A DNA stretch of 64,000 bases from the sequence record PZ171033.1. The stretch is one strand, 5' to 3'. Origin of the DNA: a phage. The position numbers and the translations under genes were made by a program. Shown here in pieces: positions 13,418 to 63,430 of the stretch; within the stretch, counting starts at the first letter, position 1, and the number at the start of each line of letters is the position of its first letter. Below the pieces are notes generated by a model. That model searched no databases. It was not told where the DNA came from and saw only the letters and a program-made list of their open reading frames with translations.

Positions 13418-13448
13418 AAGCCCCTCATTTGAGGGGCTTTTTTATTTT
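13418..13448. terminator. bidirectional terminator between convergent genes
   Basis: AAGCCCCTC-ATTT-GAGGGGCTT then TTTTTATTTT; A-rich on the other side. Confidence 0.7.
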
Positions 13449-16400
13449 AGTTTATCAGGTTCATCCAAGGGTTCAGGTTGTGAGCACGTAAGCCTTGACC
13501 GAAACCGAAGGAGTAACCAAGATTGCCCTGTGCAGCAATACTAAAGATGTTGTCCTGAATAGGCAGGCCAACGTTACCAAACATGGTAGGGGTTGGGGCC
13601 AACATAGCCATAGCAGCATGAACTGGGTTATTACGAATCATGGACACTGCAACTTTTGCAGAACGAATCTTAAAGTTGTAGAACCACATCAGACCAACAC
13701 TTTCCATATACCCACGGAAACGACCTGGCAGACGATCATAGTTAATAAACTCTTCCGTTACACGTCCTAGTGCTTCTTCGCGAGTCTTACCTTTACGCTG
13801 AGTTAATTCATCATAGATGATTGCTTTAGCAATAAAGTCAGAGTACTCAACCGTCTTCTGGATACCCTGGAACAAAGCAGTATCCTTAGTGATAAGTGCA
13901 TAACGACCAGCATTACGTACAGACTTAGGCAGCTTATCAGCCAACTTATCCATGTACTCGTGAAGTTTACCTTCAGTAATCAGGATGTCGTCACGACCAA
14001 TACCAGCGTCTGCAATTGAAGAGAACTCACCTGCTTCTAACAGGGGCCAGATACTCAAACGCTTATGACTATCAGAGATGGACTGAATCTCAGCCTTAAG
14101 TTTACGAATCTGGTTCGGGTTAGTAGCTGCACGTAATTCTGCTTCTGCATCTACCTGACGCAGACGAGATTTCAGATACTGGTTAATCTCAGCAGTTTTC
14201 TGTGGAATGCTCTTAGCAATGTTCTTAACAGGTACACCACGAGCAACCATCTGGTAAAGGTTAGCCAGGAAGTTAACAGCAGGTACGACTACTGACTTAA
14301 CTACAATCAGGGTCTTAGCTTCTTTAACTAAATTCTGAACCAGGTTCTCACCACCCATTACGTATTTATAGGCACGGTTACCGAAGACACCCAACATAGC
14401 TTTCTTGAAGGTATCCAGTGTTTCTTGGGACCAACGAGAGTTACCAGACCAGGCATCACCAACAGAAGCTGCACGATAGCCGAGAGCATCATTGAGCATG
14501 TCACGACGTACCCACAGCTCACCAGGACCAAACAGACTTTCTGCTTTCTGACGTGTTTCACTATTCATCAGCTTAAGTGCATCGGCAGTTACTGGGTCCA
14601 GTTTAGAACCAAGAAGGTTAACGTACTGGGACTTATTAGAAGCAGACATCTTAATGTCGTTCTCATACATGCTATGCAGGTTCTCAATTAGCATATCGTT
14701 GAAACGCTGAGCCTTAGCCTCTTCTACCTGACGACCACGCCATACACCGATTGCACGAGCAAGATGGTTCTCACCCTCAATGTGCTTCAGCATGTTAGGG
14801 TCAATGGATTGCTCATAAGCAACCACATTACCATTGGCATCATATACAGGCAGAAGTGGTTCATTACCACGTTCACCACGAGCCAGTGCTTTAGTGATAC
14901 GATCTACAGAAGGCTTGTCAGTAATACGACCAGCTACCATGGTTCCCATAGTAAAGCCTGTACCAAGGTCCACACCACCAGCAGTATTGCGAACGTTCTG
15001 TAAGATACCCTGTGAGAATGGGGCCTGTGCCTGTACTGGTGCGAAGTAGTAGCTACGAGCAGGACCACGATTAGCAGAGCTACCCTGATATGTACCCAGT
15101 CGTACATAGGATTTCTCAATCAAATCAGCAAACTGACTATCTTCAGCAACAATCAGATTAACACCCTGTTTAGTCTCACTAGGGATATGCCCTTTGTACT
15201 GGTTCAGGGTTGCACGCATATCAGATTTGGCTTTAGCCATTTCATCTTTACGCTGACCAACCAGGTAAGAGGTGGCAAAGTCCATCCCATCAACTTCTGT
15301 CTGAGCCAGTGAAGATAACATCTCACGGTCGGACTTGTTCATTGCTTCCAGTGCATACAGGGTAATCAGTTTATCCAGTTGAGCTACATCTACAGTAGAG
15401 CGTGCAGCCTGACGTTCACCCAGCATACGGGAGATTGCAGTAGCATTACGCAGCAGGTTTTTACCGACAGTACCATTAATCATGTACTGAGCCAGTTGCT
15501 TAGATTTACGGTTAATCAGAGGCCAGTTACGACCAGCTTGTTTCTGCAAATCTGCTTCCAGCTTATTCACTTCACGGTCAACAATCTTCTGGTCAGTCAG
15601 TAAGTCACGGATTTCAGCCAGTGACATAGTGTCACGCAGGACAGCTAAATCTGTTTTACCCATACCAGTATGCATTACTTTCCACTCATCATTAGTCAGC
15701 TTACGGCTGAACTTAGATGCGATAGTAGTAGGCAGATGTTCACGGAACTGCTGACGGTCTGCCTGCACCTGTGCACGTACTGCTTTAATCAAATCGTATA
15801 CAGAAGCATTGCTCTTAGTACGACCGGTTAAGTCATTAACCAGGTCATGGAAAGGTTGCCATACCTTACCCTGGTTCATTGCAGCCATAACACCTTCAGC
15901 TACGATTGCACCATTCTTCTCTGTAGCAATAGCAGCTACCAGTTGTGCAGCATGAGCAGCACCTTTAACCAATGGATTATTGGTATTGGCTGCAACTTCA
16001 CGAGCACCTTCCAAAGCACGGGTAGATAGTACATCAATAGAATCCACCAGATACTGGTTAGCACGGTCAATAGCATTACCAGTAGGAGTAGCAACGGAAT
16101 CATAGAAGGATTCTGCATTAAGACTGGTCTGCATAATCGTCTGAGCCAGTGCATCCATACCTTCCTGTACGTTAGTAGCTTTAGTATCACCTGCTACACG
16201 AGCATTCAGACTAGCCATTGCAGCAGTACCAATGTTAGTCAGCATTGCATCAACGGTATTACCTGATTTCTTATCTGCTTTCATGACAGGAATGTCAGCC
16301 AGTACTTTACGTACTTCTTCACTTACCATTGCCAGACCAACAAAGGTAGGCAGTAAAGAAGATCGACCTTGTGCATCAAACTCAATGTTGTTAGCACCCA

Positions 16401-19400
16401 TGATGGTATCGAACTTCTGCTGTGCATAATAACGATCAGCAGGGTTAGTACTATCTGGGTCAGCCATAAATGCTTCGACGGTCAGATTCTTAGTAACATG
16501 CGTGTAGTATTCCTGTGCACGAGCCATAGCAGCAGGGTTAACAGCAGCCTCGGTAGCCAGTGCAGCAACAATATTGGTAAAGAGACGCTGTTCCTGCATA
16601 TTCATGGTGAAGCCATGAGCCTGAACATCACGAGTTACTTTAGTTGCATTTACTACTGCATCAGAGAACTTACCTTTGCGAATTACTTGCTGTACTGGTT
16701 CTGAACCAATGTAGTTAGTAATTAGCTTATCAAAGGTTTTCCCTAGCTCTTCCAGACGAGTATTTTCACCATACGCTTTGTTATGGAACAGAGTAGTATC
16801 TTTGGCTACAGCAGCAGTAGGAGCTTGCCCACGCATTACTACAGCAGAGTTAAACAGTAAGCCAGAGAACATATCTTCTGCATTAGCAGGAGCTTTCTTA
16901 CGTCCAAATACCAGACGTTTGATTGCTTCATATACAGCCTGAACCATAGTTTTAAGTGCAGTGGTTTTCTTCTGCTTACTAATCAGTTCTCGGTTGGTTA
17001 AACCCCAAGCCATGTACTCGTTCAGTGCAGCAGCTTTAGCCATTGCTGGTTCAATAAAGCCATTGGATAGGTGACCATTAATGGTATTCAGTGCATCAGC
17101 ATATGCTTCTCGTACTGCCGGAGATTCATCCCTAACATCCAGAGCACGGAACTGATTCATCAGGTCTTCGATGTTCTGGACTGCTTCATTAGGAGTGCCT
17201 TCATAGTGAGCCAGTACAGATTCAAAAGTAGAAGCATGTACCAATTCATGAACCAGAGTCTCTAAGGAAGGGGTAACTAAGTAGATGGTTTTATCTTCAA
17301 AGTTAGTCCAGCCGTATGCATTACCAGCTTCAGCAGCTTCAATATCTTCCGGTGCTGGGCGAGTAATGTTCTTCTCAATAGCATAGGCATCCAATTGAGC
17401 AGGTGTACCGTAAACAACTTTATAGTCTTTAGCAGCAAGGGATTTCTGTATTTCTTTCAATACTTCTTGCTGTTCAGGAGACATCTCTTTAGCCAGTTTA
17501 GTAATGGCAGTGTTAGACAGCAGACGTACACCAGACTTCAGTACACGACCAACCTGTTCCATCGCCGGTACTTCTTCCACTGGTTCTGCTTTAGTAGCAC
17601 GTACTGCTTCACGACGCTTATTTAATTCAGCATCAAACAGTTCGTTCAGCTTAGCTACTTGCTGGTCTACAGTAAGACCTTCCAGAGAGATTTTACCGTT
17701 GTTCACATAAGGAGCACCTACGGCAGCCATCTGGTCAACAGTGACTTGTACCTGGTCCATTACCTTGTGACGAATATCTACACCCAGAGCAATGTTACGC
17801 AGGTTACGTTCAATCTGCTCAGCACCGACACGTAACAGGTCATCAGTAGCACCCTCACGTTGGTCATACTCCAGAGCAGACTTAGCGATAGCCTGTTTGG
17901 TTTCATCAGACAGTTTACTGAAGTCTACGTTCTTCATGAACTTAGCGTAGGAGTCATAAACATTCTTGATAGGGTTACCCTGCCAGGAAGTATATACAGC
18001 CTCATTAGCTTTGCGACTTGCATCAGTGATGTCATTGATACCAATGTTCATACCATCAAAGATTTTCAGGGTATTCTTCGGAGCACCTTTCATAGTAGAA
18101 AGTGTCTGCATCATCATGCCATCACCAGTACCGATGGTCATAAATGGAATACCTGCAACACCTGCCTGTGAAGGAGCATAAATGCTCATTGGCACACGCA
18201 TACGGTCATCTAAGTTAGTAGCCAGTACTTGGTTAGCAACATCAGTATTCTCACTACCAGCAATGTAGAAAGTCTGTGAACCAGTCTCAATCATTGGAGC
18301 CAGTGAAGATAATGATTCCTGGATTTCATTCAGTTCTTTCTGCGTTAAGAAATCACCTTTCTTCCAGGTTGGGTCTTTTTCTTTTTCTGCCAGCTTAGCC
18401 TGTACTGCTTGCTGGAACATATCCTGCAATACCAGAGATTGAATCTGGGTAGCCTTCTGCAAGTTCTCGGTAGAGTGCATCAGACCTTCACCAACAGTAT
18501 TACGGATACCAGTACGCATTGGTTCAACGAACAGGTGGAGCATGTTCTCTTGTAAGTTCTTCAGGGCATTACCGGATACGGTAAATTTCTGGGGGTCTAA
18601 CTTACCAGTCAGAGCACCATCTACTTGCTGAATAGACAACTCACCTTTACGCATAACTGGAACATTACCAGTCAGTGCTTCCATAGAAGTAAGGAAAGTA
18701 TCCAACATAGCCTGAGCATCAGCTTCAGACGCAGCCTCCTTACCAAACATTGCCATAGCTGGGGAAATGCTAGGGTCAGCAGCTCGTGCTTGCAGAACGT
18801 CACTGAAGCGTTCGTAGATGGTATCAGTAATTGCACTGACCATCTTGCCAGCAATACCACGAGCACCAGAACCATAGATGGTAATGGTCAGTGGGTTTTT
18901 AGCAATACCACGTTTCAGGTCCAGAGTACCGTCTTCATTCAGGTTAAAGTCTTTAATGAACAAGTCCATTAACTTCTGGAGATGATTCATCTGGCTCATA
19001 ACTGGAACGTTGTTACGGTAAGTAGTACGTAACTCATTCAGTGCTTGTTGAAGACCATTGGTAGATGCTTCATACAAGTCAACATTATCGTCGATAGAAC
19101 AATGTTCGTTCATCGTTTTACCAGCACGACCAAAGAACAAACCACCTTTGGCAGTGTTCTTAATCCAGTCTGGAGTGAACTTACCACCAGTCATTAATAC
19201 CATTGCGTTGATTGGGCCGTTGGTTACACCATCAGCTTCAACGTACAGTGGAGTAGTAAAATTAGCACGGTCATCACTGTTCAGGTAACGGGCATATTCC
19301 ATCAGAGCCATGAGAGCTACGAAGGATTTATCACTACCCAGAGAGGTCTTCAGGATGTCTACTGCATCTGTCGGTAAGTGACCAGACTTATCAAACTCAA

Positions 19401-22400
19401 CCATCATATCAACAGCAGGTTTCAGTTTACCTTCCAGAGCTTTAGTTAACTCTTCAGACATAACTTCACGGGACATTTTATGTACCTTGATGCCTAATGC
19501 CTGAGCCAGACCTAACTGGAAGTCAGAGAACGCTTGGCTGTTTTCATTACTCAAGTCGATAGTAGAGAAGGTTGGTAGGATTGCTTCACGAACCAGCTTA
19601 CTGGATTGTGGGTTGTTCTTACCAAGCATCTGCATACGACCTACACGGGTCATGTTATAACCGTAGTGGATAGGTGTATCCAGACCATTCTCTTGTTCTC
19701 GTATCTGATTAATTACACCGAACAGAGAATCATATGCCATAGACACGGACAGGTTTTTACCTTCCAAAGATTTAGCAGTGTTCGCGTTCAGTAATTCTGG
19801 ATTAAGAGTACCAGCACCCATCAGTTCCAGAATGTTGTCACGCCCCAATGCTTCATAGAAGTTAACCATTGGCATATGTACACGGAACTCGGTAGCCTGT
19901 TCAGCTTTCAGTGCAGCCTTCTGTTCAGGGGTATTCTTAACAGCAGGGTTACGCAACTGAGTCTGAGCCACAGAAGGAATGTCATCACCAAAGTACATTT
20001 TCTCTTCTGGTTCTAAGAGGACAGCTTCCTCAATAGCAGTAGGGAATTTATTAATGGCATCATTGTCATCCAACTTCTCAATGGTATACAGACCAACAGT
20101 CTTATTGGAGTCTGGGTCAATCTCAGACACATCCAACATAGACTCTTTAACTTCACCCATCTCAATGAGAGAAGACAGAATCTCTGTAGCCATTGCCATT
20201 GGGATACCTTTGGTATAACCCAGCGGTGCATTAGGATTACGATTCAAACCCCAGTAGGATTCAATCTTCTGAGCCAGTGAGTTAGTAGCTTCAACCAGGG
20301 TCTGGGCATTCTCGAACTCAGCCAGAATACCTTCTGGTAACAGAGATGCTTCTACGCCTGTAATAGCAGCTACGTCTTTCATATCTTTAATGGCAGCATT
20401 CTGTGTAGTAGTCAGTCGCCATTGCAAACCAGCAAGCACAGCAGTCTCTAACAACTGGTCGTTGAACTTAAAGGTATCCCCATCTTGTTCAACTATATTC
20501 AGCAGTTTGCCACCTACCCAACGGTTAGCTTCAGTACCTTCTGCAAAACGTTTACCAACGTTCTTATTAGCAAGGAACTTAGCCAGACGTTCAGACAAAG
20601 TAGTCTTCAGAGTTTCACCAAAGTCCATTAAGTCCTGATAACGCTTAATCACATCACTAGTGAGAGCGTTATTTTCTTTTTGAGTGAATGCCTCAAAGCG
20701 AGCAGCAGAAGACAGTGCTTGCTTAATATCAGTCAAAGGAGATTCTGAACCAATGGTACGGGACTTAGGTTCTTCCGGTAAGGTAAATGCTTTCAGGAAC
20801 TGGTTCGGTGTCTTTTCATTGTTATAGACAGGGAACACTGTTTCCATTTCTGTTTTGGTTTCAGCTACTTCCTGGATGGTATCCTCATTCTTGAGAATAG
20901 CATCTACTGTTTCAGGCTTAGTAGTAGAGACTTCTTCTGTTTTTGGACTAGTCTCCTTAGTAGGAGCAGTCTTATTTTCTACCACAGGTTTAGCTTTAGG
21001 CTGTACAGTAGTAGTGTCCTCTTGCACTGGTGCAGGAGATTCATCAACCTGATTCACTGGTTCATTAGTCTGTTGAGACTGAGTGGCATCAAGACCACCT
21101 TGACGGAACTCTTTAACTACCTGGGCAGCAGGCTTGTTCAGACGTGAATCCAACGAGGTAACTTTCACATGAGAAACATTAAGCTCCGGGTAAGCCGTAG
21201 CAAGTGCATTAGCAATATCAGCTACGGTTTTGGCTTCCAGTCCTACTTGCTGGGCAAACTTAACAGACTTGGTATCGTAAGGATTGACACCGAGGCCAGT
21301 ACGACTACGTACCCATTCACGGGAAGGCGAGAGAGCCTGATAATGAACAGACTTATTCTTATCCGCATTCCCCGAAATCAGATGCTCATTCAACGCTCCG
21401 ACCTTATTCTGCATGTGCTGGGCGAACTTCATAAAGTCGCTCAGATAAGCGGAGGCCAAATCGAAGTTACCAGAGTTATACGCAGAACGAATGCGTTTCG
21501 CATGTTGCAACGCAGAGTACTGTCCTTCATTAGAACGAGACTCGTCGGTTTTAATCTGTTTACTAACAATGTCTTGAGGACGTAAGCCTAGTTCTTCTGC
21601 TTTAGCGTCGAACTCACGTGCACCCTGTAACAAGGCAGCAGCAGATTGCAGGGCAGCACGTTGACGATTCCCCAGTGTAATCTTACCTTCACTTGCGTGC
21701 TTCAGAACCATGTTCACTGAATCTGCATCCAGTACTTCTGGAGACACATCAGCAGCCATAGCAATGTTGTTTGCTTGGGCTTGATTAGCTTCTTCAGTAG
21801 CTTTCAGCTTACCTGCTTCAGCCTGTTCCTGAATCATGGAATGGATGGCACGGAATGCACGGAGTACTTTAGGGGTATTCTGTACGTTAGCCATCAAGCC
21901 AGAGAACTGGTCTACGATTGTAGCAGCAGGAGAACCTTGTTCCAGATTAGCCAGAGCACCTGGGTCACGGTTAATGAAGCTATCCATAGACATGATGTTG
22001 TCATACATCTGGATTGCAGCTTCCATTTGAACGTTAGGGTCTTCAGCAGTATTAACCAGGTCAGCCATCTTCTGAATAGCTTCAACACGGTTAGTGGAAC
22101 CAGAAACAGCTTCACGGATTGCCGGGTTAGCTTGTTCCAATTCTACCGGGTCAAACTTCATTGCCTGAGTTAAGTCAGCAGCATACTGGGTAGCAGCAGC
22201 TTTCTCTTCTGGAGTGATGTCCATTGCATCCACTGCTTCTTGTACAGTTGCCTGTGCTTGTTCTGCCTGAGCAGCAGCTTCCTGTGCAGCAGCATTAACC
22301 GTAGCATCAGCTACAGGGGATGCTTGTTCATTACGCTTAGCAACTTCTTCACCACGTTGAATCAGGATGTTAGTAAGAGGGGATGCAGCTTTTGCTAATG

Positions 22401-23817
22401 TTTTGCCAACCAGAGAAGCACCAGCCAGGGTAGTACGAAGAGCAGGGCCAGCAGAAGCACCAACTGCTTTAACAGTTGTACCAGGAGCTTGAGCAACCCC
22501 AGCACTACCGAATCCATAAAGTGCACCCAGACCTGCTTGCTCACCAACCCCTTTGAGGGTGTCACGGGATGCATCAACGTTTTCTTTGATTGCAGTATTC
22601 TGTGCGAACTGACCAAAGCCGGATTGAATACCTTCTTCGACTGTTTCACGTAGCATATTAGAACCAGCACCTGCCAGTGAACCTACCTTAAGTGGGTTAA
22701 GTTCAAAGCGAGATACCAGTGGACCGGTAGCAGCAGCAACTGGAGCAGTTAAGCCAGCAGCAATGATACCTGTTTCAGATGCAGTCTGACGTCGTGCTTC
22801 ATCAGGAGATAAACCATCAGCAATATGTTGCTGGTAAACAGGAGACTTACTTGCCAGTTCTTGGTGGGACATCTTCATGATTTCAGAAGCAGTCTGTTGG
22901 TATGCACCACCAGCTTCCATACCACCAATTGCAATAGCAGGTGCAGCAACACGACCAGCAGACAGTGCAACCTGTGCAGGACGTGAACCTAACCCAGCAG
23001 CTAAGGTAATACCTTTAACAGCTTTATCACCTCCTACCATTACTTTACCTAATGCAGATACACCACGGATAAGTGGACCACCAGTAAAGAGGGAACCAAC
23101 ACCTTCACTCAGTCCGTCGGAAGCAGCCATACCATTATCAAGTGTATTAGCAACAGAATCAAAAGCGTCACGACCAATACGAGACAGGGAGGCAACCAAA
23201 TCGCTCTCTCCGTTTTTTATATCTTGTTCATAGAGTTTCTGGTTCTTTTGGGCAGAAATCTGGTTCTGATTCTGAACAACTTTACGGGTAGCATTCAGTG
23301 CATCAGACTGTAGATTGTGTACACCTTCATTCAACCAATCCATCCCGGAAGCAATGGATGCCCCGGCATTATCATTGACCAGACCTGTGCCAAGAGCAGC
23401 AATGCCCCCAAGGGTATTAGCAACACCAAGACCAACACCAGAAAGAGTATCGCCAAATGCTTCTGCGTTAGTACGTTGTTTAGATAAGCCCTGACGTACA
23501 ACATCAGTAGCATTAGCTCGGCTATTAAGAATCTGTAAACCTTGCTCATTACCATACTTATTAATGATTTCTAAGGGAGAGGCTTGAGTGAAATCTGCCT
23601 GAAGTGAACCGGGTTCGAATGCACCGATTCCAAGATTACCTACTCGTCCAGTCTGGAGATTGTAAGCGTTCTCTGGGGTTAATTGGAAAGGGCTTTGCCC
23701 TTGTGCAGCTTGCTTCTGAGAGGTTGCAGTAGAGACATCGACTTGCTTAGCATTAGTGATGCTGTCTGCGAAACCTGCCAGACGGTCAAATGTTGACATA
23801 GCATGTTTCCTGTTCAA
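13447..23817 (-). CDS. virion-encapsidated RNA polymerase (N4 gp50-like vRNAP), 3456 aa
   Basis: Single 10.4-kb ORF; central T7-like motifs A (YVEADGVTNGPINAM) and B (KRGIAKNPLTITIYGSG); size matches N4 vRNAP. Confidence 0.9.
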   Translation of the reverse strand: MNRKHAMSTFDRLAGFADSITNAKQVDVSTATSQKQAAQGQSPFQLTPENAYNLQTGRVGNLGIGAFEPGSLQADFTQASPLEIINKYGNEQGLQILNSRANATDVVRQGLSKQRTNAEAFGDTLSGVGLGVANTLGGIAALGTGLVNDNAGASIASGMDWLNEGVHNLQSDALNATRKVVQNQNQISAQKNQKLYEQDIKNGESDLVASLSRIGRDAFDSVANTLDNGMAASDGLSEGVGSLFTGGPLIRGVSALGKVMVGGDKAVKGITLAAGLGSRPAQVALSAGRVAAPAIAIGGMEAGGAYQQTASEIMKMSHQELASKSPVYQQHIADGLSPDEARRQTASETGIIAAGLTAPVAAATGPLVSRFELNPLKVGSLAGAGSNMLRETVEEGIQSGFGQFAQNTAIKENVDASRDTLKGVGEQAGLGALYGFGSAGVAQAPGTTVKAVGASAGPALRTTLAGASLVGKTLAKAASPLTNILIQRGEEVAKRNEQASPVADATVNAAAQEAAAQAEQAQATVQEAVDAMDITPEEKAAATQYAADLTQAMKFDPVELEQANPAIREAVSGSTNRVEAIQKMADLVNTAEDPNVQMEAAIQMYDNIMSMDSFINRDPGALANLEQGSPAATIVDQFSGLMANVQNTPKVLRAFRAIHSMIQEQAEAGKLKATEEANQAQANNIAMAADVSPEVLDADSVNMVLKHASEGKITLGNRQRAALQSAAALLQGAREFDAKAEELGLRPQDIVSKQIKTDESRSNEGQYSALQHAKRIRSAYNSGNFDLASAYLSDFMKFAQHMQNKVGALNEHLISGNADKNKSVHYQALSPSREWVRSRTGLGVNPYDTKSVKFAQQVGLEAKTVADIANALATAYPELNVSHVKVTSLDSRLNKPAAQVVKEFRQGGLDATQSQQTNEPVNQVDESPAPVQEDTTTVQPKAKPVVENKTAPTKETSPKTEEVSTTKPETVDAILKNEDTIQEVAETKTEMETVFPVYNNEKTPNQFLKAFTLPEEPKSRTIGSESPLTDIKQALSSAARFEAFTQKENNALTSDVIKRYQDLMDFGETLKTTLSERLAKFLANKNVGKRFAEGTEANRWVGGKLLNIVEQDGDTFKFNDQLLETAVLAGLQWRLTTTQNAAIKDMKDVAAITGVEASLLPEGILAEFENAQTLVEATNSLAQKIESYWGLNRNPNAPLGYTKGIPMAMATEILSSLIEMGEVKESMLDVSEIDPDSNKTVGLYTIEKLDDNDAINKFPTAIEEAVLLEPEEKMYFGDDIPSVAQTQLRNPAVKNTPEQKAALKAEQATEFRVHMPMVNFYEALGRDNILELMGAGTLNPELLNANTAKSLEGKNLSVSMAYDSLFGVINQIREQENGLDTPIHYGYNMTRVGRMQMLGKNNPQSSKLVREAILPTFSTIDLSNENSQAFSDFQLGLAQALGIKVHKMSREVMSEELTKALEGKLKPAVDMMVEFDKSGHLPTDAVDILKTSLGSDKSFVALMALMEYARYLNSDDRANFTTPLYVEADGVTNGPINAMVLMTGGKFTPDWIKNTAKGGLFFGRAGKTMNEHCSIDDNVDLYEASTNGLQQALNELRTTYRNNVPVMSQMNHLQKLMDLFIKDFNLNEDGTLDLKRGIAKNPLTITIYGSGARGIAGKMVSAITDTIYERFSDVLQARAADPSISPAMAMFGKEAASEADAQAMLDTFLTSMEALTGNVPVMRKGELSIQQVDGALTGKLDPQKFTVSGNALKNLQENMLHLFVEPMRTGIRNTVGEGLMHSTENLQKATQIQSLVLQDMFQQAVQAKLAEKEKDPTWKKGDFLTQKELNEIQESLSSLAPMIETGSQTFYIAGSENTDVANQVLATNLDDRMRVPMSIYAPSQAGVAGIPFMTIGTGDGMMMQTLSTMKGAPKNTLKIFDGMNIGINDITDASRKANEAVYTSWQGNPIKNVYDSYAKFMKNVDFSKLSDETKQAIAKSALEYDQREGATDDLLRVGAEQIERNLRNIALGVDIRHKVMDQVQVTVDQMAAVGAPYVNNGKISLEGLTVDQQVAKLNELFDAELNKRREAVRATKAEPVEEVPAMEQVGRVLKSGVRLLSNTAITKLAKEMSPEQQEVLKEIQKSLAAKDYKVVYGTPAQLDAYAIEKNITRPAPEDIEAAEAGNAYGWTNFEDKTIYLVTPSLETLVHELVHASTFESVLAHYEGTPNEAVQNIEDLMNQFRALDVRDESPAVREAYADALNTINGHLSNGFIEPAMAKAAALNEYMAWGLTNRELISKQKKTTALKTMVQAVYEAIKRLVFGRKKAPANAEDMFSGLLFNSAVVMRGQAPTAAVAKDTTLFHNKAYGENTRLEELGKTFDKLITNYIGSEPVQQVIRKGKFSDAVVNATKVTRDVQAHGFTMNMQEQRLFTNIVAALATEAAVNPAAMARAQEYYTHVTKNLTVEAFMADPDSTNPADRYYAQQKFDTIMGANNIEFDAQGRSSLLPTFVGLAMVSEEVRKVLADIPVMKADKKSGNTVDAMLTNIGTAAMASLNARVAGDTKATNVQEGMDALAQTIMQTSLNAESFYDSVATPTGNAIDRANQYLVDSIDVLSTRALEGAREVAANTNNPLVKGAAHAAQLVAAIATEKNGAIVAEGVMAAMNQGKVWQPFHDLVNDLTGRTKSNASVYDLIKAVRAQVQADRQQFREHLPTTIASKFSRKLTNDEWKVMHTGMGKTDLAVLRDTMSLAEIRDLLTDQKIVDREVNKLEADLQKQAGRNWPLINRKSKQLAQYMINGTVGKNLLRNATAISRMLGERQAARSTVDVAQLDKLITLYALEAMNKSDREMLSSLAQTEVDGMDFATSYLVGQRKDEMAKAKSDMRATLNQYKGHIPSETKQGVNLIVAEDSQFADLIEKSYVRLGTYQGSSANRGPARSYYFAPVQAQAPFSQGILQNVRNTAGGVDLGTGFTMGTMVAGRITDKPSVDRITKALARGERGNEPLLPVYDANGNVVAYEQSIDPNMLKHIEGENHLARAIGVWRGRQVEEAKAQRFNDMLIENLHSMYENDIKMSASNKSQYVNLLGSKLDPVTADALKLMNSETRQKAESLFGPGELWVRRDMLNDALGYRAASVGDAWSGNSRWSQETLDTFKKAMLGVFGNRAYKYVMGGENLVQNLVKEAKTLIVVKSVVVPAVNFLANLYQMVARGVPVKNIAKSIPQKTAEINQYLKSRLRQVDAEAELRAATNPNQIRKLKAEIQSISDSHKRLSIWPLLEAGEFSSIADAGIGRDDILITEGKLHEYMDKLADKLPKSVRNAGRYALITKDTALFQGIQKTVEYSDFIAKAIIYDELTQRKGKTREEALGRVTEEFINYDRLPGRFRGYMESVGLMWFYNFKIRSAKVAVSMIRNNPVHAAMAMLAPTPTMFGNVGLPIQDNIFSIAAQGNLGYSFGFGQGLRAHNLNPWMNLIN

Positions 23818-43432: not shown

Positions 43433-45043
43433 TCACACAATGTATGAACGTAGTGGATTAACACTATCTTCTTCTTCCTCATCCCACATTGGGTCACCCT
43501 TGTTATCCACCAAAGTCATACCTGCTTGTGGTTTCCAAGGATTGAGATAACCCAGCATGGAGATAGTATCAATACAGTCATCCTTACCTTTAATCCCATT
43601 AATGGTAGCTAGTTTAATCTGGCCCATGAACAGACCCATAATAGTCGTATCTCTCAACTCTTCTGGGAAGTACATCTTACCAGCTTTGAACCATGGAACT
43701 ACCAGGTTAAAGCGTGACAGTTTAGAGGTTACAGGACGGATGCCTGGCTTACCACCCTCAGAGGATGCAAAGTTAAAGAAGACATTACGGTTAATCATTT
43801 CTTTCTGAAGGAGTGAGATAAATCCATTTTGTTGTCCTGTAATTTCGACACCAACGTTTTGTGGTTGGTATTCCTGAACCAGACGGAAGAGGTCGTCAAA
43901 GTTCTTATCCATAAGCTGACGATTAGCCACACCATCAACCCAGAACCAATCTCCATTAGAACTATAAGCCCAAACTGATATGACACTGTAGTCACTGGTC
44001 TGTTTCTCCGAAGTAGCAAAGTCAGTTGTAATATAATAGTTGTAGCAGGACTTCATCCTTAACAGTTGCTGTCTGCTGTACCATTTAATCTCACTATCCT
44101 GAACAAGGCGTTCATCTTCAGAACTAATACGAAGCATAAGTTCCTGGTAGAAGCCAGCCAGCTTACCAGTCTTAACTGCCATGTCATATTGGGCTTTGAT
44201 GTAGTCGTAGGAGAAACGGTCATCCCATGCACCCTGAAATTCTTCTCTACTACAGGGGAACTTCTCACATACAGGCCATACGTTTACATCCCATGCACCA
44301 GACTCTACTGCTTCAATGATAATGTCTTCCTTATTAAAGGGAGTACCATTGAAGATTACTTTACGACGAGTAGGGTCAAGAGCATGGTTCACACCTTTAT
44401 AAACAGTATCTTTAATAGCTTCCATGCTAGTCTTAGAGTTAGCATCACCATCACTAATCAAGTCATCCAGTACACAGAGTGTTGGACGTTTACCATATAT
44501 CTTCGTACCACGAAGACCTGTCTTAGCACCAAACAACTTAACACCAAGTCGATGTCCTTCTACATTACGGAACTCCAGTAGGTTATCCGTAAAGGTAGCT
44601 TCAGGTATCCATTGCTGAAGGAACTCACTATTCTTGTAACGAAATTCAATGTTCTTACGTGCAGACTTAGCACCGTTATCCATTGAGTCAGATACGTAAA
44701 TCATTCCTTCTACTTTACCCAGGCTAGGTAAGTGACCAAACACTGCCAGAAACAAAGTAAAGTATTCCATGAATACAGCAGTCTTACCTGCACCACGGAA
44801 GCACAGGTTAACTACATACTGGTTCGGACTAATCATCTTATCCAGCATCTTCAGGTGAACTGGAGGTGTTTTGTTGGATTCACCTTCTTTGCCATTAACC
44901 AACTTAATAAAGTTGGCAAAGGTAAGAGCAAACTGACTAGGAACATAGTTAGATGAATTAAGGTGGGAGTAATCCACCTGGTCCAGCCATTCATCTAGTT
45001 CCTGTTTAATTAACTCAGACATCTGTAATGTCCTCATCTGCAC
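43433..45043 (-). CDS. terminase large subunit
   Basis: Walker A FRGAGKTAV, Walker B-like LCVLDDLISD, C-terminal nuclease-type acidic residues; 536 aa. Confidence 0.85.
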   Translation of the reverse strand: MQMRTLQMSELIKQELDEWLDQVDYSHLNSSNYVPSQFALTFANFIKLVNGKEGESNKTPPVHLKMLDKMISPNQYVVNLCFRGAGKTAVFMEYFTLFLAVFGHLPSLGKVEGMIYVSDSMDNGAKSARKNIEFRYKNSEFLQQWIPEATFTDNLLEFRNVEGHRLGVKLFGAKTGLRGTKIYGKRPTLCVLDDLISDGDANSKTSMEAIKDTVYKGVNHALDPTRRKVIFNGTPFNKEDIIIEAVESGAWDVNVWPVCEKFPCSREEFQGAWDDRFSYDYIKAQYDMAVKTGKLAGFYQELMLRISSEDERLVQDSEIKWYSRQQLLRMKSCYNYYITTDFATSEKQTSDYSVISVWAYSSNGDWFWVDGVANRQLMDKNFDDLFRLVQEYQPQNVGVEITGQQNGFISLLQKEMINRNVFFNFASSEGGKPGIRPVTSKLSRFNLVVPWFKAGKMYFPEELRDTTIMGLFMGQIKLATINGIKGKDDCIDTISMLGYLNPWKPQAGMTLVDNKGDPMWDEEEEDSVNPLRSYIV

Positions 45044-45704
45044 GAACTAGTTTAGAACCAGCAACCTCTTTGGTAGGTACACCACTATTGATTGCATTGA
45101 TTTGCTGCTCAGCTAATGCAGCAAGTGTTGCCTTGAGGTCAGTTAATCCAGAGTTCTCTCTCAAGTCCAGATTGATATTTGTTACCTGGTCTTTCGGTTT
45201 AGCTAAGTGAGTAAGGATAGAGTTAGCTGCATCACATCTTACTTTCTCACTCGCTGCTGTAGTCATTAGTTCAACCTGAACGTTGATAGCCTTCTGATAA
45301 TTATCTTGGTTCACAATCCACACTGGAACCAAACTTTGTTCCATGATGAGGTTAACTAGCTTACCCCTGTGGTAAGCAGATACATAAGCACTAATATCTT
45401 TCTCACTGGTTCCTCGTGCTACGAGTTCTGCTTGTCGGTTGGGGAATGTCTTGAAGTAGGCTTCCTTATTTGAGTAGCCCATGTGCTTGTAAGTCACATA
45501 CTGAACTGCATTCATGTAGTCCTGTGTCTTAAACTTACCTTCCTTCATTACACCAGAGTAGGAGATAAAGTTTTCACGGAAGGACTCAGCAACCAGTTGG
45601 TCTTGGGTTATGTTGTTAATCGTGTCTACCAACTCCTGGGTCACACTGTTTTTGAAGTTAGCAGGTAGTGCATTAATAATCTGCTGCTTAGTTAGTTCAC
45701 TCAT
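45015..45704 (-). CDS. putative terminase small subunit / first gene of late operon
   Basis: 229 aa, overlaps terminase large start; call by position. Confidence 0.4.
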   Translation of the reverse strand: MSELTKQQIINALPANFKNSVTQELVDTINNITQDQLVAESFRENFISYSGVMKEGKFKTQDYMNAVQYVTYKHMGYSNKEAYFKTFPNRQAELVARGTSEKDISAYVSAYHRGKLVNLIMEQSLVPVWIVNQDNYQKAINVQVELMTTAASEKVRCDAANSILTHLAKPKDQVTNINLDLRENSGLTDLKATLAALAEQQINAINSGVPTKEVAGSKLVRADEDITDV

Positions 45705-47650: not shown

Positions 47651-47989
47651 ATGAACGTTAAGCTCTTGGGAATGAGTGGTACTGACTTACTGCATTATTC
47701 CTCTGTACCAGAAAAAGCAATCATCCATATTATGACCTATGGGAGTTCTACACTAATAATGGAACCAGGAGAGTTAGCAGACTTTGCACAGGGGCATAAA
47801 CTTATTACTAACAGTAATGCAGAGATAGTTATCCTGCAAAACGGTGAGTCAGTCTCCATACCATTGGGAGATTATGCTCATGTGTTTATCAAAGATGCTA
47901 CCGTAAGGAATAGTAGTGGTAACCCTAACCATCCTGACTATTACTCTGGCATAGCACGTATCATCACCAGAACCTCCCCTCCTATTTAA
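47651..47989 (+). CDS. early protein, possible divergent paralog 6
   Basis: Tandem position, similar size; weak core match (ELADFAQGHKLITNSNAEIVIL). Confidence 0.45.
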   Translation: MNVKLLGMSGTDLLHYSSVPEKAIIHIMTYGSSTLIMEPGELADFAQGHKLITNSNAEIVILQNGESVSIPLGDYAHVFIKDATVRNSSGNPNHPDYYSGIARIITRTSPPI

Positions 47990-48148
47990 CTGCTTATAAG
48001 TGAGATAGCTATGATATTTTTGCATGTCAAAATGTTGATAGCTATGTATGGCTACAGTGGTGTGGCTGGGGCTACACCCTTACACTCAACCATCCCCCCC
48101 GGTATGTTGACCGTGTAGCCACTACCCTACCCCACCTTACACGTTACA

Positions 48149-48161
48149 CATGCTCCGCATG
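48149..48161 (+). promoter_or_regulatory. vRNAP-promoter-like hairpin (5-bp stem, 3-nt loop)
   Basis: CATGC-TCC-GCATG; template strand reads GCGGAGC; 44 nt upstream of ORF 48205. Confidence 0.45.
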
Positions 48162-48204
48162 TTATGGACATGTCGTCCTATCATCAACTATTGGAGCTAT
48201 CATC

Positions 48205-48528
48205 ATGACCACTACCGCTACTGTACGTATGACTGCAGGAACTTTACTTGGTACTGTTAACTCAGCTGCTACTACTGTTGCAGATACATTTGGTACAGCA
48301 ACTAAAGCAGTAGGTATGCTTAATTCATATGTAAGTACTATGGCAGAGAAACAAGCCATCCGTACTAAATTAGAAATGCATACCTTTGTTAATAAACTGG
48401 CAGAGGAAACAGCTATGACTGAGACTCTGCGTAAGAAAAGTATCGAGGAATTCTGCAAGGATTCAGAGAACGCTCGTATCTATAACGCAGAATATTCCAA
48501 AGTAATTGACATCCTGACTAAAGACTAA
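48205..48528 (+). CDS. hypothetical early protein
   Basis: ORF with GGAG RBS, downstream of promoter-like hairpin 48149-48161; terminator follows. Confidence 0.5.
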   Translation: MTTTATVRMTAGTLLGTVNSAATTVADTFGTATKAVGMLNSYVSTMAEKQAIRTKLEMHTFVNKLAEETAMTETLRKKSIEEFCKDSENARIYNAEYSKVIDILTKD

Positions 48529-48535
48529 GTCACAT

Positions 48536-48562
48536 AGGAGACTCTTCGGAGTCTCCTGTTTT
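48536..48562 (+). terminator. rho-independent terminator
   Basis: AGGAGACTC-TTCG-GAGTCTCCT then GTTTT. Confidence 0.65.
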
Positions 48563-48637
48563 GAACATTAGATAGATAGTCAAAAGTAGATAACTATCTA
48601 CTTTAAGTTAACTAACTCGCACTATCTTTAAAAGAAA

Positions 48638-48650
48638 GACGCTCCGCGTC
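48638..48650 (+). promoter_or_regulatory. vRNAP-promoter-like hairpin (5-bp stem, 3-nt loop)
   Basis: GACGC-TCC-GCGTC; same GCTCCGC core; upstream of ORF 48762. Confidence 0.45.
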
Positions 48651-48761
48651 TAAAGGATAAGAATGAATCCACTTCTTATCGAAATCTTAAGTCTTTTCTT
48701 GGGTTTAGTCACCGACAGACAAACCCATAAATCAAAAAATCATTTATCTGGAGAGTACAAA

Positions 48762-49142
48762 ATGTCTATTCAAAAATTCACTTTCGGTCAATCTAACACT
48801 GCTGCTTCTACTGCTAAAGCTGATAAACCAAAAGCTCAGTTCTGGCTGAACATTGGTTATGTGGCTAATGAAGGCTCTGATGATGAGAAATTCATCTCAC
48901 TGCCTACTGGTATTCCATTGGATACTCAGGAACCGCTGCCTACTAACAGCAGCAATGCTGACTTCCGTGCTATGCGTTGTGCACAGAACGATTTGCTGGA
49001 ACAGTTAATCGAATATGCTCAGAACCTGGAACCAGGTGAAGAGGGTATCATTAACCTGCAAGTTCAACTTCGTCGTGTGAAAGCAGAGGCTGCTGACATC
49101 CCAGCAGACGAGAATAAATATGCTCGTAAACTGACTTTCTAA
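48762..49142 (+). CDS. hypothetical early protein (possible N4 gp2-like ssDNA-binding activator; speculative)
   Basis: Internal ATG with GGAGAG RBS preferred over track start 48663; flanked by promoter-like hairpin and strong terminator. Confidence 0.45.
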
Positions 49143-52987: not shown

Positions 52988-53002
52988 AGCTGCTCCGCAG
53001 CT
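52988..53002 (+). promoter_or_regulatory. vRNAP-promoter-like hairpin (6-bp stem, 3-nt loop)
   Basis: AGCTGC-TCC-GCAGCT; same GCTCCGC core; 34 nt upstream of RNAPII small subunit gene. Confidence 0.45.
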
Positions 53003-53035: not shown

Positions 53036-53854
53036 ATGTACTCATCTATTGAACATCAGAAGCAGCTTGAAGTCCTTTTTAACAAAAACCAATTACTGCC
53101 TCGCATGAGGAAGGAATTCGAGGACTCCAAAGAAATTGACTTTAAGGCATTCGCTGCCTATTTAGAAATTGATTATAAGCTGCTCATTGATGCAATGGTG
53201 CAGATTGCCCTACATAAACGTGCTGACATCCAGACTATGATTGGCTCTCTCATGAGTCACTCAGATGATGCTCAGTACATCGCTGACTGTCTGTATAAGA
53301 TGGCAGAGAATGACTGCTTCAACTATGACCCTACCATCGACAAGTTCGGTGTTATCTATGAGATTAGTGAAGATGTTCAGATGGAACTGGAAGCATTCCA
53401 GTATCCATTACCAATCGTCAGTAAACCTAAGCCTGTCCTGACTAACCGGGACACTGGTTACTATGAGTCTAAAGGCTCAATCATCCTCAAGAAGAACCAT
53501 CATGAGATGGACGTCTGCCTTGACCACATTAACCGCATGAACAACCAACGTCTCTGTATTAACTGGGACGTTGCTAACTATGTAAAAGACTCTCGTCCTA
53601 ACATGGATAAACCCAAAGAGGGTGAAACCCGTCAGGATTATGAGAAACGTGTTAAAGCCTTTGAGAAGTACAGTCGTACTGCTAAGGAAGTAATGGAGTT
53701 AGTAACCAAAGAGGGCAATAACTTCTCGCTAGCGCATAAGTATGACAAGAGGGGCAGAACCTATGCCTGTGGATACCACATTAACTATGCGGGGACTTCA
53801 TATAACAAGGCAGTGATTGAATTTGCAGATAAAGAACTAGTAAACGAGGATTAG
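53036..53854 (+). CDS. phage RNA polymerase II, small subunit (N4 gp15-like; N-terminal half of a T7-type RNAP)
   Basis: 272 aa; DxxGR-type motif YDKRGRTYACGY; TAGGAG RBS. Confidence 0.75.
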   Translation: MYSSIEHQKQLEVLFNKNQLLPRMRKEFEDSKEIDFKAFAAYLEIDYKLLIDAMVQIALHKRADIQTMIGSLMSHSDDAQYIADCLYKMAENDCFNYDPTIDKFGVIYEISEDVQMELEAFQYPLPIVSKPKPVLTNRDTGYYESKGSIILKKNHHEMDVCLDHINRMNNQRLCINWDVANYVKDSRPNMDKPKEGETRQDYEKRVKAFEKYSRTAKEVMELVTKEGNNFSLAHKYDKRGRTYACGYHINYAGTSYNKAVIEFADKELVNED

Positions 53855-62600: not shown

Positions 62601-62987
62601 ATGTCAAACAGACAAAATGGTAAGTCTATCTTCCAGGGGATGGACTTTGGTAAGTTGGAACAAACTGCAATGCTTGCTGTTGGGAAGTCTCTTCATAACA
62701 CCGTAGAGCAGGGTGAGATTGACCCGGATATCTACGCAGCAATGCAAGTTCTTATTCAGAAAGGGTGGACTAGTAGAACACTCCGTGTCCAACCATATAT
62801 TCCCCCGGAACCCCATCTGAAATCTAAGGTAGAACGAATCATTGATGACTTCTGGGCTTACCCAGGCGAAGGACACATGTATCTGTATCTGGAACAGTTA
62901 CAGAAGAATCCAATCACTAAGGATTCATTCAAAGGTGGGAGCACTACTCACCATTACCCTTGGTATAGAAAAGGTAGCAAATACTAA
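62601..62987 (+). CDS. hypothetical protein
   Basis: 128-aa ORF after terminator. Confidence 0.45.
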   Translation: MSNRQNGKSIFQGMDFGKLEQTAMLAVGKSLHNTVEQGEIDPDIYAAMQVLIQKGWTSRTLRVQPYIPPEPHLKSKVERIIDDFWAYPGEGHMYLYLEQLQKNPITKDSFKGGSTTHHYPWYRKGSKY

Positions 62988-63430
62988 TGCGTATTCCATT
63001 CCTTAAAAAAAGAAAGCAATCCCCTGTTCTTTATAAGAAAGGTATTGAGGATGAGTATGAACTCAACCGTAAAGCCCGTTCCTACGCAACAAAATTATTC
63101 ATGGGGACCAATACCCCCGATAGATTACTGGACTTTGTTTTCGAACAAGTCTTTATCATATACAGCTTAGCTATGTCTGCTGGTTCACAAGAAGTAAGTG
63201 ATAAGGCAAGAGATGCTCTCTGTATGCTCCGTAAAGAGTATGAAGCCCTCATGTATGAAGACTTGTACTCCTTTAAAGAAGAAACCGCTGTAGCGTGTTC
63301 TGTGGCCCTTACTGAAGGTATAGCAGTATTACAGGAACTACCCCGTAGTGAGTTTAAGCTGGTATATGTTCAGGCCAAGAAGATTACAGAAAGCCGTAGT
63401 GGTATCACCAACTATCTAAGGTCATTCTAA
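62987..63430 (+). CDS. hypothetical protein
   Basis: Coupled ORF. Confidence 0.45.
   Translation: MRIPFLKKRKQSPVLYKKGIEDEYELNRKARSYATKLFMGTNTPDRLLDFVFEQVFIIYSLAMSAGSQEVSDKARDALCMLRKEYEALMYEDLYSFKEETAVACSVALTEGIAVLQELPRSEFKLVYVQAKKITESRSGITNYLRSF

Follow-up and report, generated by a model that had tools for sequence, protein, structure and literature searches.

The 215 nt of non-coding phage DNA at positions 47990 to 48204 of the window, where 'window' refers to the whole 64,000-nt stretch analysed here (sequence record PZ171033.1), very probably are best explained overall as containing the physical left end of the virion DNA, at 48062/48063, the start there of a direct terminal repeat (DTR) of ~401 bp, and also P1, an early promoter for virion RNA polymerase. 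The region, that is, is an N4-type left end with P1, an element type which is already well known, and it includes as well some conserved motifs that have no known job. Both left end and repeat are placed in this phage by homology to experimentally mapped relatives. By that homology, positions 47990-48062 are the last unique right-arm sequence, i.e., as found after the gp70-71.x homologues and before the right-hand copy of the repeat, and positions 48063-48204 are the first 142 nt of packaged DNA, these being the first to enter the cell.

An earlier, sequence-only reading had described a single spacer between a paralog array and the next early gene. As the left terminus lies inside of the region, this array (the gp70-71.x homologues) and gp1 sit instead at opposite ends of the molecule, and the supposed spacer joins parts of the virion DNA that are physically apart. 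The two halves adjoin only in a permuted assembly or in a concatemer; they do not constitute one continuous spacer. That reading missed the left terminus and repeat start at 48062/48063, but its suggestion of a packaging signal is plausible, since the physical end of the genome falls inside the region. A check of the sequence otherwise found every feature that it had listed, each where it had been placed, and the claim that the region is non-coding holds as well, with overlapping ORFs all short and unconserved. An ORF at 48011-48118 was rejected as it would span the physical DNA end and as its frame is broken in relatives by changes in C-run length. More generally, the small ORFs 48011-48118 and 48150-48260, resembling Bas96_0088 and PHANOTATE calls made in Mimir124, lack a conserved start codon or frame.

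The window is a circularly permuted N4-like genome (Schitoviridae, Gamaleyavirus-type), an assignment which follows from its N4-like matches along with the presence of virion RNA polymerase, terminase, and RNAPII-subunit homologues. The region's 4-kb surroundings match ~84 N4-like phages with Escherichia, Shigella, and Klebsiella hosts, the top matches being K57alpha1.2, IME11, and HK2, at ~90-95% DNA identity. The virion RNA polymerase ORF is found at 13447-23817 (minus strand, 3456 aa), the large terminase ORF at 43433-45043 (minus strand), and homologues of both N4 RNA polymerase II subunits are encoded in the 64 kb. Encoded at 45015-45704 is a phrog_2109 protein, a putative further terminase subunit. 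The first early gene is the gp1 homologue at 48205-48528 (plus strand; phrog_5020), within which the terminal repeat stops and which is 66% identical to N4 gp1, a protein that has been reported to be necessary for the use of middle promoters. The gene directly upstream of the junction, for its part, differs among Gamaleyavirus isolates.

Several mapped or annotated ends converge on the same place. Nucleotide 1 of the N4 record (TGGTGGGGCTACACC) aligns to 48063, the record's opening TGGTGGGGCTACACCCC pairing in the alignment with TGGCTGGGGCTACACCC at that position. With phage IME11, high-frequency read starts at GTGGCTGGGGCTACACC.. have been reported at record positions 63123, 63124, and 63122, with the opposite end at 62722 and a DTR of 401 bp (PMC3896407). 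IME11 is 95% identical here, and its ends, as transferred through a gap-free alignment, correspond to window positions 48062 +/- 1 and 48463. The IME11 left end displays a heterogeneity of +/- 1-2 nt. The 'terminal repeat' feature of G7C and the 403-bp DTR feature of Mimir124 both start where the alignment gives 48062-48063, no fewer than 14 linear records of relatives begin or end at what is 48062-48070 in the window, and the records of 24-32N, Mimir124, and PBM-2 stop at window 48462-48463. Across the region, the mapped phages IME11 (ends from read pile-ups), UE-S5a, UE-M3, and UE-M6 (ends from PhageTerm), as well as G7C, are 92-96% identical to this phage and share the same left-end sequence. 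For the UE phages, which belong to the same genus, PhageTerm gave 401-bp repeats (PMC11927229). The left-end sequence thus is homologous to the experimentally determined left ends of N4, IME11, G7C, and Mimir124. N4-like left ends, in addition, have gp1 as their opening gene, starting ~130-190 nt in, with the repeat stopping inside of or after gp1; here the distance from end to gp1 ATG is 143 nt, and 48463, the right boundary as mapped, falls within gp1.

The DTR itself is assigned, by homology only, to 48063-48463 (plus strand), of which the permuted window holds a single copy. Its 401 bp is the same as that of IME11 and the UE phages. As G7C is annotated with a repeat of 1160 bp although it is a close relative, the right boundary could differ from 48463 in this phage. 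Five lineages have repeats of 401-416 bp, and for N4 the length is 390-440, the exceptions being G7C and Vibrio JA1 (1974 bp). The right repeat boundary, by contrast, is not located at a conserved sequence. That near-constant length despite the lack of conservation of boundary sequence suggests that the right end may be set by distance (~400 bp) rather than by sequence. On the basis of this assignment, the genome's true start would be 48063, and the record therefore should be re-oriented, with a repeat of ~401 bp added at its right end.

P1 is found at 48148-48162 (plus strand) as ACATGC-TCC-GCATGT, i.e., a 6-bp stem (48148-48153 with 48157-48162) closed by a TCC loop which is GGA on the template strand, with the heptamer GCTCCGC at 48152-48158. 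What had previously been recognized as a promoter-like hairpin can now be named more exactly, as it is the first early promoter and matches every sequence determinant of the promoters of the N4 virion RNA polymerase. N4 early promoters possess a GC-rich heptamer that is centred at -11 and flanked by inverted repeats; the polymerase contacts -12A, -11G, -10G, -9C, and -8G of the template strand; transcription begins 8 nt downstream of -8; and promoter activity requires supercoiling by gyrase along with host SSB (PMC4496689). The P1 heptamer reads 5'-GCGGAGC-3' on the template strand, which supplies all of the bases that are contacted in N4 and is the same as the heptamer of N4 P2.

This heptamer occurs at just three sites in the 64 kb, all on the plus strand and each with a 6-bp stem and with GG at predicted +1/+2. 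The other two are P2 (AGACGC-TCC-GCGTCT, 48637-48651), upstream of the gp2 homologue (48663-49142), and P3 (AGCTGC-TCC-GCAGCT, 52988-53002), upstream of the homologue of RNAPII subunit gp15 (53036-53854). P1, P2, and P3 thus are directly upstream of gp1, gp2, and gp15 homologues, at distances of 0.1, 0.6, and 4.9 kb from the end. N4 is similar in having three promoters, before gp1, gp2, and RNAPII genes, with the heptamer likewise centred at -11. The full promoter pattern, i.e., GCT[CT]CGC with a stem of at least 5 bp and GG 11-12 nt after the loop centre, is observed 3 times in the window versus 0.007 expected. Without these sequence determinants, a 6-bp stem closed by a 3-nt loop is unremarkable, as 7.6% of shuffles have one. 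P1 folds as a single predicted DNA hairpin.

Comparison among relatives points in the same direction. Promoter-like surroundings are seen with 35 of 53 unique heptamer contexts, representing 12 different combinations of stem arms. Within an alignment of 13 promoters, which were not chosen for having stems, the five inner stem pairs are 100% paired, 91% of cells are paired overall, and there are 12 double-sided changes, giving a covariation score that none of 500 shuffles attained. In P1 the stem reads CATGC/GCATG in this phage versus GTTGC/GCAAC in G7C, K60PH164C1, and N4, and the GG at predicted +1/+2 is invariant among the aligned promoters. By its sequence determinants, copy number, placement, and covariation, 48148-48162 is early promoter P1.

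Transcript starts are predicted from sequence at G48166 for P1, G48655 for P2, and G53006 for P3, the first being consistent with the N4 rule of initiation 8 nt downstream of -8. A literature search for transcription-start data on N4-like coliphages of this group found none. The gp1 leader (48166-48204) would begin with a 5' stem-loop, GGAC (48166-48169) with GTCC (48175-48178), this self-complementary segment at +1 covarying across genera. It includes also two copies of CTATCATCA along with a Shine-Dalgarno GGAG (48193-48196) ahead of the ATG at 48205. No intrinsic terminators were found on the plus strand of the window, the lone match being the P2 hairpin as read on the minus strand. With all three early promoters and their predicted starts now placed, these are available for annotation.

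Conservation was expressed as mean identity versus 16 diverse relatives. Starting upstream, this is 0.39 for the upstream ORF, 0.67 for 47990-48013, and 0.80 for 48014-48062. Beyond the cut it is 0.94 for 48063-48084, 0.94 for the C7 run plus GGTATG, 0.95 for 48122-48147, 0.92 for the P1 hairpin, 0.91 for the gp1 leader, and 0.84 for the gp1 coding sequence. The non-coding leader, that is, is 0.91-0.95 identical to relatives, which is above both the gp1 coding sequence (0.84) and the upstream gene (0.39). It is interrupted by two variable pockets, 48085-48093 and 48107-48121, that correspond to the C-run arms and the GTGTAGCC arm.

The terminal leader (48063-48147, plus strand) is C-rich, consisting of 35 C versus 14 G, and carries four TACAC motifs (at 48073, 48081, 48138, and 48145) along with a ACCCTACCCCACCTTACAC block. 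ACAC-type repeats are found also in Achromobacter, Burkholderia, and Stenotrophomonas phages. Within the leader is the C7 run (48094-48100), which is followed by GGTATG and is bordered by variable complementary arms, TCAAC and GTTGA, the whole element spanning 48086-48111 (plus strand). The run had been noted from the sequence, to which can be added that it is deeply conserved at a fixed distance from the end: A run of C7 to C9, with its first C 31-34 nt from the physical end, is present in seven of seven terminus-anchored genomes (the window, N4, Axy13, phiAxp-3, Ea9-2, HN01, and Paxi), which represent at least four subfamilies and whose gp1 proteins are 35-60% identical to that of the window, or 66% in the case of N4. 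Among relatives generally the run varies from C6 to C13. No other run of seven or more Cs or Gs exists in the 64 kb, and a homopolymer at least that long is reached in 2.4% of shuffles. The arms differ yet stay complementary in four of five lineages, with pairing weak in N4 and none seen in contig L017; hairpins predicted from them are weak (-2 to -5 kcal/mol). Farther in is GTGTAGCC (48113-48120, plus strand), an arm complementary to the terminal GGCTACAC (48070-48077). It is kept in N4 and in most Gamaleyaviruses, is swapped for GGGTGTA in G7C and Moo19, where pairing has moved to TACACCC, and is lost in K60PH164C1. An Rfam scan of 47700-48800 yielded no relevant match, and its two sub-threshold chance matches are both outside of the region.

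Upstream of the cut, CCTCCTATTTA (47978-47988, plus strand) overlaps the 47987-47989 stop codon with which the right arm's last gene ends. It is conserved among members of Gamaleyavirus, as it is in Erwinia phage Tellus and contigs L033 and L100, and is present in opposite orientation (TAAATAGGAGG) in Moo19, K60PH164C1, pSb-1, and N4. There then is an element, CTGCTTA..GATAG (47990-48013, plus strand), that includes the first copy of GATAGCTATG. The form CTGCTTA..(A)GATAG recurs across subfamilies, with the full 10-mer limited to some Gamaleyaviruses. This is followed by an AT-rich block (48010-48032, plus strand), which occurs once in the window, comprising a -10-like hexamer, TATGAT, then ATTTTTGCAT, and a dyad of TTTTG (48018-48022) with CAAAA (48028-48032). 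The hexamer reads TATAAT in G7C, Bas96, N4, L031, and L024, and in N4, L031, and L021 the dyad still pairs despite having C:G in place of G:C. Two other candidates from this stretch were rejected: ATATTTTTGCAT as a recurrent promoter motif, it lacking another close copy in the window, and a conserved hairpin made of the large ATAGCTAT..ATAGCTAT dyad, this dyad being found in five close relatives only. Lastly is a pre-cut module (48036-48062, plus strand), which consists of TGATAGCTATG, containing the second repeat copy, and then ..ACAGTG GTG, which extends to the left cut, with TGATAGCTA at 48036-48044 and CAGTG at 48055-48059. In coliphages, Klebsiella phages, Burkholderia HN01, and phages like Achromobacter phiAxp-3, TGATAG(C/T/G)TA has its first base 26-27 nt ahead of the left end, as mapped or annotated; N4 and Axy13 have a degenerate form, and Erwinia Ea9-2/Tellus lack it.

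The conserved motifs around the cut probably mark the site of terminase cleavage, a reading from their conservation at a fixed distance from that cut, against which count the degenerate TGATAG motif of N4 itself and its absence from Erwinia phages. Under this reading, TGATAGCTA, 27 nt upstream, and ..AGTG.., just ahead of the cut, would guide terminase as it cuts the left end from concatemers, with GGGGCTACACCC at the terminus, the ACAC repeats, and the C7 run 32 nt inside serving as further putative guides. A stronger version, toward which we lean slightly less than we lean away, would have these motifs serve as a bipartite left-end recognition and cleavage signal common to Schitoviridae, made up of TGATAG(C/T)TA 26-27 nt ahead of the cut, ..AGTG.. 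at the cut itself, repeats of ACAC type, and a run of C7-C9 that starts 31-34 nt inside, with the right end then set by distance (~400 bp). The C-run and leader, alternatively, might anchor the entering DNA end, which would allow gyrase to supercoil the DNA for extrusion of the hairpin promoter. In the papers searched, no description was found of the poly-C or of the pre-cut motif, of such a shared signal, or of the cutting or duplication of terminal repeats in N4-like phages, and these distance-locked motifs provide concrete targets for work on how N4-like phages accomplish the latter. Loci from the two IMG/VR pattern scans, which were broad, were used after exclusion of unrelated chance contigs (L015, L018, and L034) as well as of loci without a promoter-like hairpin.

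The left end of N4 has the same order as seen here: end, GGGGCTACACCC, C-run, CCTACCCCACCTT..ACAC, hairpin promoter, GGACATG start, and gp1. N4 differs in that its P1 loop is TTC rather than TCC and its stem GTTGC/GCAAC (also that of G7C) rather than ACATGC/GCATGT, its run is C9 then TG rather than C7 then GG, its pre-cut TGATAGCTA is degenerate (TCATAGTTA), and its upstream right-arm genes are unlike those found here. A more distant comparison is with the T7/T3 concatemer junction, in which terminase recognition is next to the repeat and for which there is a hairpin-intermediate model. The junction here is not known to resemble T7 pac elements in sequence. It is like Yersinia T7-like phages in that poly-C tracts and conserved motifs of non-coding sequence are found both within the repeat and next to it. 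Unlike with T7/T3, N4-type right ends are heterogeneous or perhaps set by distance, and the repeat here holds a promoter and part of a gene. A further likeness is that of non-permuted ends with a short direct repeat, the UE relatives having been placed by PhageTerm in the class 'T7-like short DTR' (PMC11927229).

Other explanations start mostly with the region's repeats, which were compared with 2000 dinucleotide-preserving shuffles of the 215 nt. The direct repeats of GATAGCTATG exist, at 48004-48013 and 48037-48046, though they are 33 nt apart start to start, with 23 nt between, and not the 31 nt previously suggested. Such a 10-nt repeat is seen in 3% of shuffles and in 5.5% of this genome's 215-nt windows, which is marginal. 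GGCTACA does occur twice (48050-48056 and 48070-48076), and GGCTACAC does complement GTGTAGCC, but the resulting long-range inverted repeat is at chance and so not special, with an 8-nt inverted repeat reached in 31% of shuffles, and it is only loosely kept. Among relatives, the second copy of GATAGCTATG and the C7 run are conserved, whereas the first copies of GATAGCTATG and of GGCTACA are lineage-specific, present in close relatives only. Two exact 10-mers beside an AT-rich stretch might be thought of as an iteron-type replication origin or partition site. We regard this as very unlikely, and the earlier suggestion of a replication signal finds no support in this form, as there are two copies only rather than three or more phased repeats, copies with one mismatch are scattered in the window without clustering, the first copy is not conserved, and GATAG spacing varies from ~33 to 47 nt among relatives, with distance to the DNA end conserved instead. 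Still less probable, to the point of being barely credible, is that these are chance repeats within an ordinary intergenic spacer whose sole function is the promoter. Consistent with chance are the unexceptional inverted repeat and the variability among relatives of the first GGCTACA and first GATAGCTATG. The conservation pattern nevertheless disfavours it, since non-coding blocks are more conserved than neighbouring genes and their distances from the end stay fixed in subfamilies whose gp1 is only 35-60% identical.

Replication could be involved differently, with GGCTACAC..GTGTAGCC or the C-run hairpin letting the bottom-strand 3' end fold back and so prime synthesis. This is compatible with the main reading and is, in our estimation, unlikely. 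Passages of PMC3896407 that summarise N4 literature mention that the ends have inverted repeats and that initiation takes place there, N4 has identical 8-bp arms, folding back of the terminal 68 nt gives a z-score of -2.2 in the window, and the C-run arms, as above, covary in most lineages. The z-score, however, is ~0 in N4, G7C, and Jgk1, the GTGTAGCC arm is missing in K60PH164C1-type phages, a 7-nt 3' tail would stay unpaired, an inverted repeat of 8 bp is, as noted, readily reached by shuffles, predicted structures are weak, and RNAalifold found no covarying consensus helix in the terminal 70 nt of 15 lineages. Comparably improbable is a host-polymerase promoter, rightward and of sigma-70 or N4 late type, consisting of TTAACT-18-TATGAT (47986-48015), with a putative start near 48022-48024 and with two ATAGCTAT flanking the -10 and +1 that would bind a dimeric regulator, which would amount to a true regulatory hub. 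The A2 and T6 of the -10-like hexamer are kept in nearly all relatives, including those which display TATAAT, the promoter scan scores 9 of 12 matches, and ATAGCTAT is a perfect palindrome with two copies 33 bp apart. That match, though, is no better than in shuffles (2 found versus 2.5 expected), the motif is unique in the window and so does not constitute a promoter class, many lineages with the AT-rich block lack the first palindrome, and K60PH164C1/pSb-1-type relatives have the T-run after a hairpin, which is terminator-like. On virion DNA, moreover, transcripts would enter only the 401-bp terminal repeat.

With the region taken to be a left end carrying P1, the early steps of infection can be sketched from N4 biochemistry. 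Following ejection, supercoiling by gyrase would extrude the P1 hairpin, and host SSB would hold the template-strand hairpin accessible. The injected polymerase then would read the GGA loop along with the G at -8, initiating at G48166. The resulting gp1 mRNA would carry a small 5' stem-loop as well as the GGAG ribosome site, such that gp1 would be expressed early, and P2 (48641) and P3 (52992) would act likewise for the gp2 and RNAPII gene homologues. N4-type promoter hairpins and junctions such as these end up annotated wrongly in public records, whether as terminators, as small ORFs, or as unrelated genes, which is a caution for automated calling.

A run of seven to nine cytosines begins 31-34 nt inside the physical left end (48062/48063, as placed by homology to mapped relatives) in all seven of the terminus-anchored Schitoviridae genomes compared, i.e., across several subfamilies. 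In the window this run occupies 48094-48100, and in the relatives' loci L012, L035, L036, L037, L038, and L039 it falls within nt 31-42, usually with GG following directly in these seven genomes. No description of a C-run at fixed distance from the left end was found in the literature searched.

On the other side of the cut, within the last unique bases (48036-48062), sequence comparison reveals TGATAG(C/T/G)TA, positioned at a fixed 26-27 nt ahead of the left cut, along with ..AGTG.. immediately ahead of that cut. Both are seen among coliphages as well as Klebsiella, Burkholderia, and Achromobacter phages (L153/L038, L133, L100, L069, L010, and L009). N4 itself carries TGATAG(C/T/G)TA in degenerate form, and in this same comparison the motif is absent from Erwinia phages Ea9-2/Tellus. 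Shigella phage Moonfish (L007, ~370-440) possesses a 66-nt insertion directly ahead of the repeat, one which duplicates this pre-cut module, with a Gamaleyavirus-type copy first and an N4-like copy second (TTTTTTCTTAG..CATAGCTATGT).

The right boundary of the terminal repeat (window 48463; L003:403, L035:404, L036:416, L038:407) lies at +4, +20, or +31 nt from the TTCTGCAAGGA motif of gp1, that is, no conserved sequence is found there. Repeat length nevertheless is 401-416 bp in five lineages, phage G7C with its 1160-bp repeat being an exception. These comparisons suggest that the right-end cut is measured from the left site.

Published ends exist for phage IME11, with 'left' and 'right' following the orientation of that phage's own record, i.e., the reverse of N4's (PMC3896407). 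Its end reads (Table 3 of that study) match the genome (L004) over their first 18 nt and then diverge (..CACCCGG vs. ..CACCCTT). IME11's heterogeneous end is the N4-type left end.

Right at +1 of the predicted mRNA of gp1, the first early gene, is a self-complementary segment (window 48166-48178; L012:107-119; near nt 98-112 in L035, L037, and L038). This segment reads GGAC..GTCC in the window and GGACA..TGTCC in N4; Axy13 has GGGTA..TGCCC, and HN01 and Ea9-2 share GGCA..TGCC. It resembles a 5'-terminal stem-loop of that message whose paired bases covary. The leader also contains two copies of CTATCATCA, 19 nt apart (48178-48186 and 48197-48205), the second overlapping the gp1 start codon, and AGCTATCATCAT (48195-48206) is 92% complementary to ATGTTGATAGCT (48032-48043), found upstream of the cut.

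Certain relatives display altered junctions. Upstream of the repeat in L010, L016, L021 (K60PH164C1-type), L030 (pSb-1), and L009 (Moo19), TAAATAGGAGG is reversed relative to the window's CCTCCTATTTA, and forms a stem with an ACCTCC(TA) arm lying downstream of it, after which comes the T-run. The resulting predicted hairpin is terminator-like, and is missing from the window. A 70.6-kb relative (L027, IMGVR_UViG_3300006879_000003; ~2000-2120) keeps the terminal leader and C-run, with unrelated sequence bearing a GGCTTGC-AA-GCAAGCC hairpin occupying the position of promoter P1 and gp1, and with a promoter-like hairpin ~120 nt beyond.

A generic terminator scan called the hairpin of predicted early promoter P2 (48637-48651) a minus-strand terminator; N4-type promoters, that is, can be mis-annotated as opposite-strand terminators. 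The SP5M record carries a 'terminator' feature in the P2 area. Annotation problems are seen as well in public records H1/H37 (K57alpha1.2), H87 (K60PH164C1), and H2 (IME11), and with several gp2 homologues. One relative's record names the junction region 'DNA primase', a second one gives it as 'portal / tape measure' pseudogenes, one gene of the matched region is labelled 'integrase' in IME11's GenBank record (JX880034), and gp2-family genes are named 'RNA polymerase RNAP1 subunit A'.
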